Part shown: positions 13,528 to 63,057 of the stretch, piece after piece
Position numbering within the stretch: the first letter of the stretch is position 1
Layout of the letters: each line of letters opens with the position of its first letter
Origin: Eledone cirrhosa
Lineage: Eukaryota
Direction of reading: 5' to 3'
Assembly (NCBI GenBank): GCA_964016885.1
Contig: OZ024740.1
Coordinates: 343,666,001-343,730,000, forward strand
DNA: 64,000 nucleotides
Notes under the pieces: generated by a model
The model's input: only the letters and a program-made list of their open reading frames with translations
What the model was told of the DNA's origin: nothing
Databases searched by the model: none
Program-made: the position numbers and the translations under genes

Positions 13528-13976
13528 TGGAAAATTATATTTAAATTGTTGGGTTACAACTAGTAAATATTTATAACTGATATAAAAGCACTCAACAAGT
13601 ATTTGGAGTATATTTACGATATTAAATAAATGGAAACTATATTTATAAAACCATATTTATTTCATTATATATATTTCAGGGATATCATATTAACAATATG
13701 TTATGCCTTCTTCAGACAAAATACAATATAGACAGTTTTATAGATAAATAGATTTGACATACCGTTCAACATCGACTTGTATTTGAGATTTGCCAAATCA
13801 ACTTTTTCAAATACAAGTCGATGTTGAACGGTATGTCAAATCTATTTATTTATAAAACTGTCTATATTGTATTTTGTCTGAAGAAGGCATAACATATTGT
13901 TAATATGATATCCCTGAAATATATATAATGAAATAAATATGGTTTTATAAATATAGTTTCCATTTATTTAATATCG
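13528..13976. mobile_element. HHR element family A fold-back with two divergent hammerheads (13652-13730 -, 13863-13941 +; core CTGAAGA)
   Basis: Inverted arms around a spacer of about 30 bp, (TA)n on both sides. Confidence 0.85.
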
Positions 13977-18491: not shown

Positions 18492-20356
18492 ATACATTTC
18501 TTAAAACTGGATTCTAGTATATTTTATATTCATGAGATGAAAGAATGGTATTTAACTAATGTAATGGTACGTGATGGGACCCACCCACCGCCCCAGCGGA
18601 CAGAATGGAGAAGGCGTTTTCCCGGAGGACGGCAAGGGAGACGCGCTGGAAAAGCCACTCCAACTCGCGGGGCTCACATCTACGGCTGGCCAGCTCAGCG
18701 CCTATGGTGGTGAGTAAGGAGGTAGCCCTGGGGCCGAGAACACCAGAAGCTTCCACTGCCAGGGGAACGACCACAAACCTGTCGGAGAGCGACCGGTATT
18801 TGAGGAGTTTGCCCCCCCCCCCCAGCCCGACGTACAGCAGAACCTGGGTCAGTCGCAGACTGCACCAGCTGCGGCTGCAGAAAGTGTCGGTGCAAGTGGC
18901 ATCCCAGACGAGGGGTTTGCCACTGCGGATCGGGAAGATGGTCATGCCATCTGGCCTTTTGCCGTCCCCTCGATCCAGCCCCACCGGCTCGAGCTGGGAA
19001 GGGAAGCCTGCAGCGTCCAAGCCATGCTTAATGACCTCGTTGAGGGCAGTATGGTGTGGAATGCGGCCGGCACTGTGGCGACAGGAAAGCGGGGGGAGGC
19101 CGAAAGAGTCCACGGTGGAACCGCAGCGACATTGGTGTGGCTGGCAGATCCGGAGGCCGAGCCTCAGGGAAACGCGGATTCGCAGGCTATGGTTGTCTAG
19201 CTGCGGACCAGTGGAGGAGAGCAGAGCATGGAGCCAGGCACCACTGTGGGGTTTGGAGGCCGCACGAAAACAAGCAAGGTCGAGCTGGCGCTTGAGCCTG
19301 TCTGAGGCCAGGCTGCACTGGATGGCATCCCATGTGCGTTGGGGCGACTTTACGTCAACAGGGGGAGAAGGAGGAGGGACGTCTACTGGGCTAAGTCGCA
19401 GCCGGTCCCACGTCTCACAGGCGGCCTCACGTTCTCTGAACACAGAGGGTTCTGTTGTGTTTTGAAGAACCCTGCTGACGAGGACGCGGTACGAGGTTAC
19501 CGACGAAAGATACGCCGGCAAAGCTAGTGAGATCGGGGACCGGAGGCGTAGGCCACCATACCTGACCGGTAAAGTGGCCTGTTGCCACCCTATATCGTCA
19601 AACTTGACGTTGCATATCCCCTCGGCTGCTTCTCGGATACAAGTATCGAGGTCAGCGAGGAGAGATGTCTGGGTGTAGCATGGAGCGCTGCGGAGTGTAT
19701 AGAGGAGCTTCGGCATGGAGAAGCAGTTCCTCAGCAGAAAGAGAGCTGAGTGGGGCCGTCAATCAAGCCCAGTCGGCTCGTGAGAGTCTGGAGCTGTTGA
19801 AGCCTGGACCTGATGGTGGAGCGGATGGCCGGCGGCTGGATCGGTGACCCGAGGATGAGGAATCCTCTTTGGGGGTCACCTGAACGTGGCGTTTAATGGA
19901 CCGCACGTCCAAGACGGAGGCTGCAAAGCTCACAGCATCGAGACTGACGTTCACCACCCCTGACTTGGCCGAGACGACCTGTACGCCGATTTCCGCCAGG
20001 GCAGGAATCACCGATTGAAGGTCTTGGCAGACCGTCCGTACGGGCCCGCCCAACGTAGCATCATACAGATACCAAACGTTTCGAGGGGCCGTGATACTCC
20101 GGGCGATGTGGTCAATACCAAGGGCGAACAGGAGGGGTCCCAAAGGGTCACCCTGTTGGACCCCAGTTTCCGAGGGTATGACCGTATCAGCAGCTAGGAG
20201 CATGCACGGGACTCCATATGACAGGTAGGCCAGCAGGTAGGCAGAGGGGGCTCGGCTGAGGCAGGCCTCGAGCAGATGATCCCGGCGTAAATAGTTAAAG
20301 GCATTCCTCATGTCAAACTTGACAATGAGGTGCCTGGAGTCCCTGGATGCCGGTAC
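18491..20356 (-). mobile_element. 5'-truncated CRE-clade non-LTR retrotransposon (RT plus restriction-like endonuclease), frameshifted
   Basis: ORF 19763-20311 has DMRNAFN, GVQQGDPLGPLLF and WYLYD (degenerate YLDD). ORF 18556-19716 has a CRCG..LSC zinc finger, EP..DGKRPDG and WDAT RLE motifs. GC-rich island within (TA)n. Confidence 0.88.
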
Positions 20357-20544
20357 CGATGGGCAGCTGCTGAAGATATCGAGCTGCTGTTTTGATATCG
20401 ATCAGGTCGGGTTTGATAAGGCTCTTGATAAGATCCCTGCTCTTAATCGACACCTCCTCAGATATGCAAGTTTACATGGGTGGTCCCATCCATGTATATA
20501 TATATATATATATTTTGTTTTTCCTTTACCTTTACCTAAATATA

Positions 20545-29929: not shown

Positions 29930-29985
<56 letters not shown>

Positions 29986-30058
29986 TATAAATGAATGAAG
30001 AATGGCGTGCTGCGTTGTTGCGAACATAAACATATGAATAAAAATAGACAAGGGGTAA

Positions 30059-30121
30059 AATGTCCTCATCAGTAGTCTGGTGTTTATCGTTGGTATTTCG
30101 ACGCATTAAAGACTAGATACC
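30059..30121 (-). ncRNA. Candidate non-circularly permuted hammerhead ribozyme
   Basis: Minus strand: GGTA-TC-TAGTCT-tt-AATGCGTC-GAAA-TACC-13 nt-AGACTA-CTGATGA-GGACATT. Confidence 0.55.
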
Positions 30122-30321
30122 TAAAATCAGTGCGAGCGATAACTCAATTAAGTTATCGGGACAGTGGGAAAACAGAGGGAAGGAAACAAACACATGGTGG
30201 TATGCAACGTAAAGAGAGGAACACAGAGACAAGTCAATGAATCCTGTGGGCTTAAGTCCGACAAATCAAATTGATGAGGAGAAATAGACACGTCCGAGCC
30301 GCGAGAAGATTGAGAGAGGAA

Positions 30322-30372
<51 letters not shown>

Positions 30373-30413: not shown

Positions 30414-30469
30414 ACTGCTATATATATTTCGATGATAGCCATTGAATGGCTATGACCTCATCAGGCAGT
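30414..30469 (-). ncRNA. Canonical minimal type I hammerhead ribozyme
   Basis: ACTGC-CTGATGA-GGTCATAGCCAT-TCA-ATGGCTATCATC-GAAA-TATATA-TA-GCAGT followed by AATAAA, in a 164-bp island (30369-30532) between (TA)n runs. Confidence 0.85.
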
Positions 30470-30528
30470 TAGTCAGTTCTTAGATATGCCAGCTCTGTAT
30501 TTATAGTGTTGATGGCATCAGAGCCTTG

Positions 30529-30592: not shown

Positions 30593-30978
30593 ATACTTTG
30601 GGAGGGTCCTGTTGCCAATAAGAAACACACGCACCAGTTGCTTTCACTTCAATTTATTATAAAACAAAATGGCGTAGGACAGAACAAAGGAGAGGCACAG
30701 AAACAAAGAAAGGAATCCCCAGTCACTGAAGAGGTCACAGAGTGTGTGACGAAAGAACTATGACAATATATAAACAACTATCTGGTTGTGGAACCAACCA
30801 ACCAGTCAGAAATTTATAAATTTATAAATTTATTATAAATTTATTATAATAAATTGAAGTGAAAGCAACTGGTGCGTGTGTTTCTTATTGGCAACATGAC
30901 CCTCCCAAAGTATAACAATATCGGTTTCAACACACGATTTCAGATAAAGAATCTTGCTAAACAAATTCAGAAACGAAA
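30587..30978 (+). mobile_element. HHR element family C fold-back
   Basis: Arms 30587-30660 and 30846-30919 plus a one-sided extension of about 60 bp; relatives at 42165-42338 and 50905-51200. Confidence 0.8.
30722..30764 (+). ncRNA. Minimal type I hammerhead (family C)
   Basis: GTCA-CTGAAGA-G-GTCACA-GAGTG-TGTGAC-GAAA-GAAC-TA-TGAC, with one extra G before helix II. Confidence 0.72.
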
Positions 30979-45808: not shown

Positions 45809-48800
45809 ACACAGCCTTAATGTGAGTGACAGACCATACAACACCAGAATCAGTAAAGAACCCACTAAATTGGAATTGGAAGCGGTGAACGAAATAGCTG
45901 GCAATTATCTGAAGGCTATACGATCTAAATTATCTGAAGGCTATACGACATTTGAAACGCTTAATGTTTTGTTATATGTTTCAGCTGTCACATTGCTATC
46001 ATATAACACACATCTAAAACTACGCAATCAAGATACAAACAGAAAGCCTGAACCAGCGTGGATGCGAAATTTAAAAACCAAAATGTTGTCCCTGAGACGA
46101 AGTATCTCACACATCGCAGTCATTATGAAATGCAACATAGAGAGCAACTTCAAACGACACCAGGAAGACCTAAAGAAAAAGTTAGAGAGACGATTTGGAG
46201 ATACAAAATTTAAAACTTTGAACTCCAAATTACACCAGTTGAAACAACAACTCACAGCTACAACAGAAAGACTAAAATATAAGTCAACAGCACATAAACG
46301 ACAAGTGCTAAATAGATTGTTTGCCAGAGATCCTAAATCAGTTTATCGCAGCTTCGGTGGCAAAAGCTCAATCCCTGTAAACGACACCCCTTCAAAAGAA
46401 CAGGTTGAGAGCTACTGGAGATCTGTATGGGAAACGGATGACGGATTCAACAGACAAGCTAATTGGTAAAAGAACTGGAACAGGACTACTGCCAACATGT
46501 CCAGATAAAACAATATGACATAGATGGGTCAATACTGGAAACAGCCCTACAGAAAATGTCGAATAGGAAATCGCCAGGCCCAGACCTCATTACAGGATAC
46601 TGGTTGAAGAATTTCACTTTCTATCGGCAAGATCTCATACGGCTGTTTACAGAAACCATTAAAGGCACACAAGAACTTTTCAGATGGTTATCAACTGCCA
46701 CTACTCTCCCCATTCCCCAAAATAGCCAAACCACCCTTGCTAAAAATTACCGCCCAATAGCCTGCCAAAACATCATGTATAAATTATATACTGAGTGCCT
46801 TAACCTGTTCTTACAGGATCACTGTGCTACCAACAACATCATAACACCTGAGCAAGCTGGTGGAAAGAGGGAGGTGTGGGGTTGCATAGATCACCTACTA
46901 ACTAACAAAATGATTCAGGAAAAAACAACAAAGAATCTCAGAAACATGACTGTGGTGTGGCTGGACTATCAAAAAGCATTTGATAGTGTACCTCATGGGT
47001 GGATTATTAAGGCTTTACAGTTAGCTAAAGTCCCACAACCATTGGTAGCTGCTGTTGAACGCCTGACCAAGAACTGGTACACCAATTTGATCCTTAGAGG
47101 TGAGAAGGAGCAAGTTAAGACTGATAAGATACATTACCAGAAGGGCATCTTTCAGGGTGATAGCTTGTCACTGCTACTCTTCGTTCTCGCACTGAATCCA
47201 CTATCTTACCTACTCAGGAAAAAAGGTGGACAAAGAAGTGGGCCCAGAAGTATCTCCCATCTTTTCTTTGTTGATGACCTGAAGTTGTATGGGCCAAATA
47301 TCAATGACATCAAGAAACAATTGGACCTCATTACACAATTTTCAACCGACATCAAAAGGAAATTTGGTGAGTCCAAGTGTGCATATTTGGCAGTAAAACG
47401 TAGAAGAGCTGTGCCCTCCTCTAGAAATCTAGATATGAACGGCCTGACAATACAACCTCTGCAGTCAGGTGACAACTACAGATATCTTGGACAGGATGAG
47501 AATGTCAAATATGATGGACCCATAAATAAGGAGAGAACCAGAACTGAATACCTCAGAAGAGTAAAGAAAATATGGTCATCAGAACTGTCAGCATACAACA
47601 AATACATTGCCCACAATACTTATGCTGTGTCAATTCTAACGCCAACATTTGGCCTGCTGAACTGGTCATTGCAAGAACTAAGTGAGATGGATGTTAGAAC
47701 TCGAAAACTTCTCAGTGTTACTGGAAACTTTAACATCAATGGTGATGTGGATAGGCTATACTTCTCACGCAAGGAAGGTGGCCGGGGTCTAAAATCAATA
47801 TTAACAACATATGAGACCCGGATAGTAACACTGAAGCAACACCTTCAACAGAGGAAAAAGGTTGGCAACCATCTTGCCCAGGTTTATGAGCATGAACAAA
47901 AAATATCATTAGAATAGCGACTGATCTGGGGGAGAGATATGGAATAAAGCCTGATATAAATCTCTCACCCAGAGAAATCGGAAGATTCTATTCAATGTTC
48001 AAACAAGATAAAAAAATTGACCAATTTACAGAAAAAGTTGTGCATGGATACTTGAGGCGTAAAACACAGACCATAGAGGGGATAAACCACTCAAAAAGCC
48101 TGGCATGGAGTTCCGACAAGTTTATGACATCACACCTTGAGGGATATCTCTATGCAATACAGGAACAAGAACTCTCTACCAAATATCTGCTGCACAAAAG
48201 AGGAGGGCCAGCAGCTGACAATAAATGTAGGCTATGTAAAACAAAGATCGAGGATGTAAGCCACATTGTTGCCAGCTGCGAAAGAATGTCATCTCGCTAC
48301 TACCTCCCCATGAGACACGATGGGATAGCTAGAACCATCTGGAACGCACTTCGGAAAACAAAATTAACAACAAACGAGGAGGAATATATTGAGACAGATG
48401 GCACTAAGGAATACTGGTGGAACCTGAAAATAAAAACTGCCACCAAATTAAAGCACAACCGGCCTGATATTGTTGTTTGGGACCACACATTGAAAACGTG
48501 TTCTGTTGTGGAGATCAGCTGCCCACTTGGTGTAAACGTTGTCAGAAAAATACAAGAGAAGGAGGACATCTACGGACCATTGATGAGGAGTTTGCAAATC
48601 CAGTATCCAAGATACACCTTTAGCTTCATACCCATCATTATTGGAGCTACTGGTATATACCAACCAGCTTGGACCAAAGTATGACTGAACTTGGATTTGC
48701 GGACAAAAAGCGCAGCTCCCTAATTCATAGTCTACAAATGGCTGCGATAGCTGGCACCTTCAAAATTTGCAAAACATTCTTGCGATTCAAGGGATGACAA

Positions 48801-57447: not shown

Positions 57448-59603
57448 ATGGCTACGAAAAAGAATTTTCATAGGTCACTCCCACTCATTCCGTCTTCTTC
57501 TTCCTCAATCATTACTACAGCAGAGAGAAGATTGTCTCTCTCCCTCCCTTCTTTAAATGTGACTCTCTCCCTCCCTTCTCTTTCGCAAGCGACGACAGAA
57601 AAGAAAAATCTCGTGCAAAGCGTGCAAGATTTCTCCACGACGACGACGACAACGACGAAACAGGTGTGCGGGAAATACGAAAACCAATTTCATTCGTCTG
57701 ACGTCAGGAATAATAGCAGTAGCAGCCGTAATAACAACAGCAACAGTAACAAGGAAAACAACAGTAGCAGTCGCAACAGCATCAGCAGCAGCATAAACAA
57801 CAACATCATTAGCAGCAATAACAACAGCATTAGTAGCAACAACAACAGCAGCAGCAGCAACAACAACAACAACCACAGCAACTGCGGCGCCAGCAGTAGT
57901 TGTAGTACCTGCAGCAACAACAAAAGTAACAGCAGCTCTGACGACAACAACAACAACAACAACAGCAGCAAAGAAAAACCAATCTCGTTTGCAGGTATCG
58001 CAAAGAACCTGGAAACCATCCTCATAACAAATGAGGAATTAGAGGACGAAGAAGATGGTGACAAAAACTGGACACCGAGCAATCTGCAAGGCAACCGAAA
58101 CACATTTCGAAACCCAACAGCACTGTACGGTCACGTACCGTACAGTAAGTACAAAATCCCGTAGGGTTGAAAGAGCCACAGAGGCTCAAATACAAAAAGC
58201 CTTGGGGTCTGTGTGGCAGCGGAAAACGCACATCACCCGAGGCAAGAAATATGCCACCGTAGACGTACTTTTTGCCACACCCCAGGAGGCAAAGGATCAA
58301 TCCTTAGTGACCCTAAGGAGCGAGGAAATGGTGTTGGTGCCCTCCTATTGCGGGCAAAAAATTGTGAGGGTCAAACTGACCCACGTCCCCCCCCCCGGCA
58401 TGGCCCCTTCTTGGCTGGCCACGTCTGTCCTCGTCGGAATCGAGGACAAAACAACTGTACTGCAAGTACAGAAAAAAGTAAGAGAAGATTGGGTCGGCAC
58501 CTCCATTGAGATGTTAATCCAAACCAACCAGGAGTGCATCGAAGCTATCCCGGATGTGATAGACTTCGATAACGGCACTCAATTGCCCATAAGTGTTGAG
58601 GGCAAACGCCCGAAATGCTTTCGCTGTGGATCGAAGACTCAACTCAGGGCCTTCTGCAACGAGAAGAACCTGAGAAATGGAGAAAACCCCCCTCCTTCCG
58701 AAACCGGCTCCACGGCTACCAGCAACAGGACAAGTGTCAACCAGGACCGATAGGTCCGTGGCACCCATACCCACGCCACGGAAATCAAAAACAGCAGCAG
58801 CAGTGGAAGTATTAACAACAACAACAGCAATACCAAATGCAGCTGCAACAGAGACTCCAGTGAAAACATCACCAACAACAACAAGTGAAAGAGTGGAGCT
58901 GGTACCCCTCCCCGACCTCACAGAATCAGACATGGAGTGTGAGGTGGGAGAGGGATGGCAAAAGGTCGTAAGAAGGCACAAACGCAGAAGCAGCGCATCG
59001 TCGCCTTCGAAAAGGGAGGAAAGAAATGAAAAAAGGGTAAAGGCTACTGCAAAGAGACTCACAGCAGCAACACCACCAACACCATCACCACCCACACTAG
59101 CACCACCATCACCATCGGCGACAACCCCACCACCAACAACAACAACACCTTCAACACCACCACCACAAGCACCAACATCGCAAACACAACAACAAAACAC
59201 ACACACCCAGCAACAACGACAAGAAAATAGCAGAACCACACCCCACCCCCAGAAAAACAAATGCACAGCAATAAATACAGACAACAAGAAACTAATGACT
59301 TACATAATTGAACACACAGACATTTCACAACACGACTACATAATACCAGCACCAATCAAAACGCCAACTAACATAAGACTGCTAAAAATAGCACAGAAAC
59401 AATACACAAACATTAAAACGAAATTCCCCAACGCAGTTGGTGATTTCAGAGACCTAGGAGGGACTCTCAATCGAAGAGTATATTCGGACATACTCATAGA
59501 AGAGCCGACGACCAGCCGAAGGGACGATTCAACGGTTCCTTCACCAGACGATCAAGTGAAAAGGGATGGAAAAAACATCCCTCCTCTACGAAAAGTACGG
59601 TAA
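57448..59603 (+). pseudogene. Tx1 ORF1 (frameshifted; zinc knuckle CFRCGSKTQLRAFC)
   Basis: Three overlapping ORFs (57415-58164, 58055-58753, 58677-59603); EGKRPKCFRCG knuckle with H to Q; GWQKV motif. Confidence 0.78.
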
Positions 59604-59638
59604 GTGGTCTTTCCCATCTTTTCCACTCTATTTTAAAC

Positions 59639-62600
59639 ATGACCTCACTCAGAATAGGCAGCATAAATGCGCGTGGCTTGGGGTCGTCATGGAAGCAGGG
59701 TTACTTGCTCAACGACCTCAGGTCACTAAACATAGATGTAGTGGCCATCAGCGAGACCAGAATCTCCGAAGCACGGGCCTTCGCACCGATCTTCGGCGGC
59801 TACGATATGTACGCCTCTCCCAGCCGTCCTGGATCGGGGGGAGAAGTTGCTGTGCTTTTTCGGAGAGGTTTGGATCTCGCCATACGGGCCATCTTCCTGG
59901 ACCCAGAGGGTAAGTTGGTGGTGCTGGACGTGACCAGCGGAGACGGGCAAGCTTTCAGGCTAGTGGCCGTCTATGCCCCGACAGGAGCAGGGCGGCTTGA
60001 TTTCTTCCGGCGTCTGGAGACCTTTCTTGGAACGTCCCGCTCTTTAGTGTTAGTGGGCGACTGGAACGGGATCTTAGATGCACGCTGGGACTGTGTGGGA
60101 TTAGCGGATAGGGGTGGAGGGTGCAAGAGCCTCACCAACCTGCTCAGGCGTTTTGAACTGTCTGACAGGTACCGATTGGATTTCCCGAATGTGCCAAATC
60201 GCATAGGACAAATCGCTTAGGTTCATCCAGATCATATCTAGATAGAGTATTTTGTAGGGAAATAGATAGGTCTAGCATAGGCTGTCCACAATTAGAGATA
60301 GTCAACTACACGGACCACAAATTCATGATCTGTGTGCTTGACTTAGATAGGCTTCATAGACGAGGACCCGGCTACTGGAAGCTAAACGCGTCATTACCAG
60401 CGCGCAAGGGTTACAGAGACCGGATTAGCGAATTAGTTAAGCGGGCGTTGACGGGGGCCATCGTCAACAACAAGTGGTGGTTTGCTCTGAAAAGAGCGAT
60501 TAGAATAGAATCCATTAGGTTTAGTAAGGCTTTAGCAATAGACAAAAATAGAGCAGAGGGAGAACTAGTTAGAAAATTAGACGAGGCGCTTAGCAAAGGC
60601 ATTGCGACCGACGTGCTTGCGGCGAAATTGGCCCTTGACCAATTCTTCAATGCAAAGCACGAAGGCTGCGTTGTCAGAGCTAGGGTGCGTGCTCTCAGAC
60701 ACGAGGGGACGAAAGCCGTTCAATGGGCCCGAGTGGCGGAGGCGCGTCGTGGAAACAAAGCCACGATCCGGTCTTTGGTGGACCACGACGGGCGCATGCT
60801 ACTCGATCCCGGGCAAACGTGTGAAGCTTTTCAGCGACACTTGGCTCAACTGTTCGGGGGCAGTGGCGGGCCGGATCGAGGGATGGACTTTAGTGTCTAC
60901 CTCGACGGACTGCCGCGGCTTTCGGCCACTGAGGCGGAGTGTTGCGAAAAGCCGATAACAACCGCTGAAGTACGGGATGCAATGACTAGTTGCACAAGGG
61001 GTAAATCGCTTGGTTTGGATGGTCTGCCCTATGAACTTTACGTACAAATGCCAAACTTGTTCGGAGGCCTCTTGGCGGACGTCTACTGCAACTGGCAACA
61101 GAACGGGAGAATTCCCAGCTCTGTGAGCCGAGGAGCGGTGGCGCTGCTGAGAAAGGATCCGAACAAGGGGGATAACATAGATAATTTTAGGCCCATAACT
61201 CTGCTAAACACAGAGTTCAAGATTTTGGCCAAGGTGCTAGCAAAGAGGTTTGCGCTTGTCGTTGGTGGTCTGGTGGAAGAGGCACAGACATGCGCCATTC
61301 CCGACAGATCCATCCACGACAACCTCCACCTCATGCGATACATCGTAGAGAGGGTAGCTAAGGAACCTGGCACGGGTGGGTCTTTGATCAATTTAGATCA
61401 GTCGAAAGCCTTCGATAGGGTCGACCATCGTTACCTAGCGGCAGTCCTGAGGGCGGCTGGCTTTGGGCCCGTCTTCAGAGGCTGGATCGCTGCCATGCAC
61501 AGCGACATCTGCTCTGTAGTGCGAGTGAACGGTCACCTTTCGGAACCGTTCAACATCATGAGCTCGGTCCGCCAAGGATGTCCCCTCTCGTCCCTATTGT
61601 ACGTATTGACTCTCGAGCCATTACTGCACAAACTGGAGACGTTGAGGGGGGTCCCGCGCGAACTAGGATGCGGAAGATCCGTGTCAGCATATGCCGACAA
61701 TGTCACCGTAGTGGTGTCGAACGCCAAACACATCGAGGCGATCGGCACTACACTAAGAGAATACGAAGCGGTGACAGGAGCAATGATCAACCAGGAAAAG
61801 TCAGTGGGCCTGCAGCTAGGCACCTGGAGAGGCAGGTCCATGCCGTCCAACAGCGTCGTCGGGCGCTGGACGGACGGACCGGTTAAATTGCTAGGGGTCT
61901 GGTTCGGTCCAGACCTCCAGACGGACAAAAACTGGGACGAGGTGACGAGCAGGGTGGCTTCTCTCACCCAGAAATGGGCCGAGAGGAAGCTATCCCTGAA
62001 AGGTCGAGCGGAGGTGGCGAATGCGTACATCGCATCCGTCATCTACTACCGCCTGACCGTCGTACCTTGTCCTAAGCCCCGCCTGACTGCGCTGGAGCGT
62101 TTGCTCTTTCGCTTCTTGTGGAAGGGACGCGCTCCGATGGTCAGGCGGTCCATCTGCTGTCAACACCCGCTACGTGGAGAGCTGGGCATGCCGTGGCTGA
62201 TGATGCGCAGACACGCGCTCAGGCTACGACATCTCCACCTCTTCCTCGACGGTGATCAGGTGTGGTCGCCGTTTGCAAGACACGTTTTTCCCCAGCTCGT
62301 CTCCTTGACGGAGCTGCAGTCCTGGGTCAAGCGAAGACCGAGAGGGAGCGCTTGGAGACTGGAATGTCTTCAGGCGCTCACAGCCCTCGACCAATCGGGC
62401 AATGTGATCGGTGGAAACTCCACCTTGGCGTTCTATAGGGGATTAGTGGAGGGGAAGAGCGACGACGTACTTGGAGAAACTCTAGGCGTCGACGAAAATC
62501 AACTAGCCAATCTCTTCGGAGGGACTTTCGGGCCGGGACCTATGGACAACTTCCAGAAATCCCTGGCCTGGCAGTGCTACCGAGGAGCTTTGCCAGTTCG

Positions 62601-63057
62601 GGATAAACTCTACAGGCATGGAGGTGCCGTCAGCCGGGCATGTCCGAGATGCGCGCAGGGCGACGAAACCGTCCTGCACGCACTCGTCTAGTGTCCGAGC
62701 ATTGCTGACTTGTGGGTTTATGTCGAACACCTGCTGTCACGTGTAGGACGGATCCAGCTATCAGCTGAGTCCATCGTGAGGATTGCCCCGCCCCCTTCCT
62801 TTAGCCTGGAAGGGCAGGCAGTTTTTATCTGTCTGGTGGCCATGGCGAAAGAGATAGTATGGTGGACACGTTTGAAAGGGCTGAAGACGAGCACTTACCT
62901 CTTCGGTGATGCCCTGATTAACTTTTTCAAATTTCATTTGAAAAGGAAAATCAGGGTAGAGAGGGAAGTGCTCTCTTCCCAGCATTTTGTTGAAAGATGG
63001 GTGAGAGAAGCAAGTATGGCCCGAATGAATGGGCCTTCTCTGAGTATGTGTCTGTAA
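59639..63057 (+). pseudogene. Tx1 ORF2: AP endonuclease, reverse transcriptase, C-terminal zinc finger; disrupted
   Basis: SINARGL, SET, VYAP, GDWN; GPGYWKLN, FRPITLLN, DQSKAFDRVDH, VRQGCPLS, YADN (catalytic D to N), CPRC..H. Frameshift near 60200 and TAG at 62689. Confidence 0.92.

Follow-up and report, generated by a model that had tools for sequence, protein, structure and literature searches.

A predicted type SGC hammerhead ribozyme in a tandem repeat of Eledone cirrhosa and its likely relation to Naiad Penelope-like elements

The motif and the repeat that carries it

The window, a 64-kb stretch of the Eledone cirrhosa genome, holds a 5'-truncated repeat copy between two (TA)n runs. Within this copy, on the minus strand at 30135-30065, lies a hammerhead motif with an exact core in the order cut site, GAAA, CUGANGA, which is that of the non-circularly permuted type SGC hammerhead. 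Core positions are given in Hertel numbering, with their established functional roles. The features of the locus are as follows.

29940..29986, no strand: (TA)n target at the 3' end of the copy
29987..30327, minus: repeat copy, 5'-truncated, nucleotides 200-540 of the 540-nt family A monomer; 96% to natural copy L002
29987..30064, minus: 3' tail, from copy alignments and 3' end clustering
30065..30078, minus: block C, helix I partner AGACUA, CUGAUGA and G10.1; covariation
30079..30085, minus: outer helix 3' strand and 1-nt link; AAACAC in place of the AAUCAG of intact family A copies
30086..30091, minus: predicted kink-turn bulged strand, 3-nt bulge AAC, then G1b A2b U3b; consensus counts
30092..30095, minus: helix III partner UACC; covariation
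30096..30105, minus: block G, helix II strand UGCGU, C11.1 and GAAA; position 11.1 differs between subfamilies (C, U or A)
30106..30109, minus: linker UUAA from helix I tip to helix II tip; columns kept in 153-158 of 167 copies (the last A was frequently inside the search pattern)
30110..30115, minus: helix I strand past the cut site, UAGUCU; 96.9% paired, double changes in 5 of 6 pairs
30116..30121, minus: helix III strand GGUA, U16.1 and C17; helix III 98.8% paired
30122..30124, minus: predicted kink-turn non-bulged strand, 3n 2n 1n = U U A; letter counts in 124 matches
30125..30130, minus: outer (extension) helix 5' strand CUGAUU; double changes in 5 of 6 pairs
30131..30135, minus: helix II upstream strand UCGCA, partner 30101-30105; 90.7% of cells paired
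30328..30368, no strand: (TA)n at the truncated 5' end of the copy

Cleavage is predicted 3' of 30116, between 30116 and 30115, after the triplet AUC. Re-reading the minus strand confirmed what the initial annotation had reported of the letters and coordinates, namely helix III (GGUAU/AUACC), helix I (UAGUCU/AGACUA), the triplet, the cut position, the exact GAAA and CUGAUGA, and their order. That order had been described as none of types I-III, and it is the type SGC of Eckert et al. 2023 (PMC10085705); the Xenopus precedent suggested for rearranged hammerheads is absent from the accessible part of that paper. The copy does form an island between (TA)n runs, with its bounds corrected from 29981-30322 to 29987-30327.

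A generic SGC descriptor (4-bp helix III, 5-bp helix I) had this motif as its single match in the window and matched 1 of 300 dinucleotide shuffles of the window. An Rfam scan of the window gave no matches. Nested minimum free energy folding of the motif did not show the hammerhead (z = -0.42), as is expected of crossing helices. Two of the six outer helix pairs are broken in the window copy, which is most likely a dead insertion with a damaged outer helix.

The host of the motif is a non-coding tandem repeat of about 535 nt inserted into (TA)n (family A). A first look for the 333-nt island in its own 3.0-Gb genome gave 1,886 candidates, and among the 40 of these that were scored the full-length matches were 92-97% identical. 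Other family A copies are longer than the one in the window, lie head-to-tail and often carry inverted 5' pieces, and the tandem copies traverse the cut site without a scar. In the wider set the units are likewise non-coding and head-to-tail with one hammerhead each, mostly one or two units per site, and all tandem pairs but two (445 and 227 nt) have periods of 505-633 nt. The 227-nt pair (L300:1500-1730) has a unit shortened by deletion. Three contig-only runs of one sample contained related variants and unit-to-unit joints. The loci examined yielded neither an open reading frame joined to family A-F units nor an autonomous element bearing the family A ribozyme.

The two ends of the copies behave differently. 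Judged by eye, the same 3' end joins (TA)n directly in 22 of the 30 top copies, and the end of the element, about 125 nt past the cut site, is an internal CAUAU-like site fused to (TA)n. Among pattern-found copies, (TA)5 lay downstream in 34 of 42 from family A, 32 of these 73-129 nt past the cut site, and in 22 of 26 from family B, 65-131 nt past it. At the 5' side, 16 of 24 distinct junctions fell at an AU-rich spot before UGCG, following AU microhomology. No pile-up of 5' junctions was seen at the cut site, where just one of the 24 distinct junctions lay; thus, we found no genomic trace of cleaved linear templates. Perfect palindromes formed by 5' inversion inside the ribozyme were found at four loci (L047, L032, L044 and L073) and are common in the superfamily.

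Covariation and the predicted kink-turn

Patterns relaxed stepwise gave 164, 1,653, 39, 74, 379 and 6,391 matches in the octopus genome, against 1, 0, 0, 1, 17 and 2 for the reversed-pattern controls in the same order. The SGC superfamily therefore comprises more than 8,000 sites, with some overlap between patterns, in at least 15 clusters; the monomers of families A, B and C are approximately 68-78% alike over the longer aligned patches. For alignment, 263 GAAA..CUGANGA matches were reduced to 167 by dropping 36 whose spacing was not 23 nt, 52 without shared upstream sequence and eight at inversion junctions. The medoids of the 15 clusters with at least two members, together with the window copy, made up the 16 rows of the alignment used below; 34 singletons were excluded, and the first 11 columns are missing from the window row. 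The 5' strands of helices I, II and III and of the outer helix lay outside the search patterns.

A five-helix model was paired in 94.7% of 361 cells, with double changes in 17 of its 23 pairs; none of 500 shuffles scored as high and slid controls reached 29-49%, relatedness among rows not being corrected for. Helix III changed doubly in 4 of 5 pairs, so that covariation backs both helices I and III and the earlier call of a real hammerhead core. The genome-wide covariation check proposed with that call held for helix II only once a different strand was used. An NCGCR strand that precedes all other blocks forms helix II, whose fifth pair is U-A, A-U or G-C by subfamily and U.U in family A; the sole helix II pair from 3' of CUGANGA is 10.1-11.1 (canonical in 13 of 16 rows, non-canonical in 3). 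The distal helix II first proposed downstream (AAUG/CAUU) was ruled out: it was paired in 44.8% of cells, no better than the 34-47% of slid controls. Two links also had to be redrawn, since the supposed 2-nt link between helices I and II is the 4-nt UUAA, and the 13 nt taken as a plain link from helix III to helix I contain a predicted kink-turn and a 6-bp helix. The upstream helix II strand, the kink-turn arm, the tandem unit of about 535 nt and the Naiad link are additions of the present analysis.

This 6-bp outer helix extends helix III and is 94.7% paired, and the 3-by-6 loop between them matches the kink-turn consensus. In 124 matches whose pattern did not ask for these letters, G1b was present in 120, A2b in 124, A1n in 116, and G or U at 2n in 119, the 3-nt bulge being variable. 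From these letters the arm loop is predicted to be a kink-turn with a 3-nt bulge and the pairs G1b.A1n and A2b.G2n (or U). As in the simple kink-turns described by Huang and Lilley 2016 (PMC5061560, as far as the accessible text goes), the bulge is followed by G.A and A.G pairs, and the U variant at 2n occurs in Kt-23; the likeness here is by sequence match alone. U16.1 was kept in 119 of the same 124 matches, position 17 was G in none, and core position 7 was U, A, C or G among copies.

APC-corrected mutual information over the 167 copies placed 2 of the 23 predicted pairs among the top 30, probably because misregistered old singletons carried full weight. In a metagenome scan, 6 of 120 loci reached a loose score, which we treated as chance, and none had all helices and the kink-turn.

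The motif resembles type SGC (in the accessible part of PMC10085705) in its block order, exact core, short link between the helix I and II tips, and fourth helix, which connects the remaining strands of helices I and II. Type SGC and type CSG hammerheads were described there from metatranscriptome contigs. Unlike those, the present motif is chromosomal, with thousands of copies in an animal retroelement; its helix II strand lies upstream of the cut site, block C keeping at most one helix II pair, and the strands of its fourth helix run into helix III through the kink-turn. As the helix II strand is not directly 3' of CUGANGA, we class the motif as a variant of type SGC. We infer that the outer helix is the equivalent of the fourth helix of Eckert et al.

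Some further features recur in the superfamily. Most subfamilies (e.g. L129, L137 and L359) have GGA-N2-4-UCC (or UUU) 0-4 nt past CUGANGA, which could be a tiny hairpin or a near-palindrome that might aid two-copy pairing. In predicted folds (L061:1451-1537, L137:1489-1575 and window 30105-30135) the upstream helix II closes a hairpin whose loop contains the cut site, which may be an off state in the folding model. An old family (L362, L364, L367 and L373) has SGC order with 22-nt spacing and a different arm that lacks the standard kink-turn letters.

Likely relation to Naiad Penelope-like elements

Naiad Penelope-like elements (PLEs) target (TA)n and were reported to be without canonical hammerheads, some being flagged with an unexplained 'core' or 'half-core' (Craig et al. 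2021, PMC8557442; accessible part). A text search of the Naiad consensus file returned 62 CUGANGA matches, matches split across line ends being missed, and their pairings were read by eye. On this reading, 14 of 54 autonomous Naiad entries, representing fewer independent lineages, carry SGC or CSG hammerheads near the 3' end, and two further entries match more loosely. Eight of the 54 have SGC order with an upstream helix II strand, which differs in sequence from that of the octopus repeat and forms 6 bp. These are Naiad_Ovul and, named by file position and File S1 order, Obim, three Acropora entries, Movir-2, Plae and Dst-4. The other six, from the nematode region of the file, are type CSG, which is the SGC ring opened elsewhere.

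Naiad_Ovul is the closest comparison. Its motif has the kink-turn arm, a GUA triplet and a helix II of 6 bp that is unrelated in sequence. The motif lies approximately 1 kb past the stop codon and 120 nt before the terminal TA, a position matching that in families A-F. The kink-turn consensus and all helix lengths are fixed across the 15 subfamily representatives and Naiad_Ovul, and family F closely resembles Naiad_Ovul around helix III and the kink-turn.

The octopus genome also holds old Naiad-like remnants (107 candidates, of which the 40 scored were mostly 68-81% identical). Nine aligned remnant 3' UTRs carry a motif in SGC order whose U3-A8 core is a known natural hammerhead variant; no such core was seen at the 15 of 90 places viewed in File S5 of Craig et al. 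2021. The remnant motif was paired in 84.8% of cells against 27-48% for slid controls, and in these nine 3' UTRs showed no covariation beyond shuffles (169/500). Its sub-architecture differs from that of family A. The remnant Naiad is not the direct parent of family A, and no direct Naiad parent was found in the loci examined in this genome.

Family A and Naiads agree in ribozyme architecture, 3' position and (TA)n target, homology being read by eye over the ribozyme only. Like Naiads (PMC8557442, accessible part), the families show partial tandems and inverted 5' pieces at (TA)n targets, with the ribozyme architecture and distance of Naiad_Ovul; unlike Naiads, their units of 0.5-0.63 kb have no open reading frame bearing an N-terminal GIY-YIG and a C-terminal reverse transcriptase. 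They also resemble animal non-LTR retrozymes (Cervera and de la Pena 2020, PMC7229834; Li et al. 2026, 10.64898/2026.07.22.740005; accessible parts), which are non-coding tandem units with one hammerhead each, low in GC, non-autonomous and PLE-related. Those retrozymes, however, have type I hammerheads and make RNAs of 170-400 nt, with expression as linear and circular monomers characteristic of the class, whereas here the hammerhead is SGC, the unit is larger and family A is known from genomic copies. Judging from these sequence comparisons, the repeat is likely a non-autonomous derivative of a Naiad 3' end, and the SGC-order hammerhead is likely the ribozyme that Naiads were thought to lack. 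We are highly confident of this identity, an SGC hammerhead within a retroelement related to Naiads.

Candidate modes of action and their reach

Our preferred reading is an SGC hammerhead in a Naiad-derived non-coding repeat, with cleavage predicted after C17 in intact copies and two copies likely acting together as a strand-swapped pair; taken as a whole, we regard this as evenly poised between right and wrong. Each copy would form a rod of helix III, kink-turn and outer helix. The cut site and GAAA would lie in a 21-nt loop at one of its ends, and the opposite end would carry two free tails, one being the helix II strand and the second the helix I strand with CUGANGA. The tails of each copy would dock reciprocally into the loop of the other and build two cores, each with the cut site and GAAA of one copy and the CUGANGA and helix II strand of its partner. 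A tandem transcript, within which the core orders would still be non-circular (CSG and SGC), would thus be cut to unit-length RNA and a lone monomer or circle would be spared, pairing limiting cleavage to multimers by the same logic as was proposed for dimeric type I motifs. Priming by the Naiad enzyme would occur on nicked (TA)n, starting from an internal AU-rich site approximately 65-125 nt past the cut site, by analogy with internal initiation shown for another PLE, and the template would be a circle or an uncut multimer.

Other PLE and retrozyme hammerheads act as dimers. The dimeric PLE hammerheads likewise place the ribozyme in PLE terminal repeats and were proposed to need two copies; they swap via a short palindromic helix III, whereas here helix III is stable and the strands proposed to swap are those of CUGANGA and helix II. 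A little over half of our confidence in the identity goes to this paired mode, a narrow commitment.

The main rival, close behind through the conserved kink-turn, is cleavage within one chain, a serious possibility that we rate below even. The kink-turn would fold the helix III arm back so that the outer helix caps the helix I and II tips and takes the place of the loop I-loop II contact; a host L7Ae-family protein might assist. Such a cage, like the cis model of the initial annotation, poses a geometric problem: with links of 0-1 nt, the outer helix has to bridge the distance between the distal end of helix III and the helix I and II tips, a form of the SGC distance puzzle raised by Eckert et al. 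2023 (PMC10085705, accessible part). A rough axis calculation, with assumed angles and no atomic model, put the one-chain gap at 30 angstroms in the kink-turn families, near the reach of short links, and at 67 for a nearly straight ostracod arm with a bulge of only 1 nt. Fold-back would require a kink-turn, which suits the fixed kink-turn consensus and helix lengths described above, and published SGC examples cleaved during transcription. However, Naiads of the same strand layout have near-straight arms or a bulge on the opposite strand. The distance of their hinge from the core varies between 4 and 10 bp, while the arm in total measures 13-15 bp in four lineages and 22 in Acropora. The shared feature is total arm length rather than the difference between the halves; therefore, a rod bridging two cores, as in the paired mode, is favoured over fold-back.

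We think it unlikely that the fold persists because the Naiad reverse transcriptase uses it for recognition or priming, with cutting slow, protein-dependent or dispensable for copying. Anolis PLE cleavage is protein-assisted and unneeded for insertion in vitro, and such a signal would fit the copies that cross the cut site, the lack of a 5' end pile-up there and the loose 10.1-11.1 pair. Against it, U16.1 and the avoidance of G at 17 are maintained although the search patterns did not select on them, and free variation is seen at core position 7 only, as in a catalytic core. A chance arrangement in one passively amplified repeat has a negligible probability and is refuted by the covariation counts: the helices are AT-rich and the outer helix of the window copy is broken, but 1 of 300 shuffles matched, double changes span the subfamilies, and the same layout with unrelated helix sequences recurs in Naiads of several phyla.

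The scrambled SGC order was previously known almost only from environmental sequence, in one paper and with almost no named organism. In the literature searched, which largely excluded subscription journals and for which supplements may bear on the point, the term 'type-SGC' appeared only in Eckert et al. 2023 (PMC10085705, accessible part). Within the same limits on subscription journals, we found no paper tying Naiads to permuted hammerheads, and none uniting hammerhead, kink-turn and retrotransposon apart from a single review. With this repeat, non-circular permutation in RNA gains a host and a mobile-element context, along with thousands of copies and deep covariation. The motif offers a possible answer to the stated puzzle of how Naiads proliferated without hammerheads and, as a kink-turn-containing hammerhead, is a structural target. 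A further implication is that a large share of animal ribozymes escapes descriptor searches designed around types I-III.

A broader proposal, which we advance tentatively and would sooner expect to fail than to hold, is that SGC/CSG is a clade-wide overlooked Naiad ribozyme of cnidarians, nematodes, arthropods, acanthocephalans and molluscs, cutting only as head-to-tail strand-swapped pairs. These would form a two-core RNA ring, its geometry here set by the kink-turn and with a host L7Ae-family clamp possible. If true, SGC/CSG would be among the commonest ribozymes of invertebrate genomes, and dimerisation would explain the 'impossible' link of the published SGC ribozymes.

The window contains other candidate ribozymes and retroelement remains. 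Two type I hammerheads with a very short helix III, at 30718-30772 on the plus strand and 30415-30472 on the minus strand, lie in other (TA)n-flanked repeats near the SGC copy. The former recurs downstream of a GIY-YIG open reading frame remnant in L092, and therefore belongs to a canonical PLE. At 19465-19520, 7358, 8208, 13878 and 22057 (plus strand) and at 13715 and 21321 (minus strand), additional CUGANGA motifs lie in repeated contexts and are probably other hammerhead families. Broken open reading frames at 59444-63057 and 45810-48684 (plus strand) and at 18556-20401 (minus strand) resemble, by eye, the endonuclease and reverse transcriptase genes of non-LTR retrotransposons.
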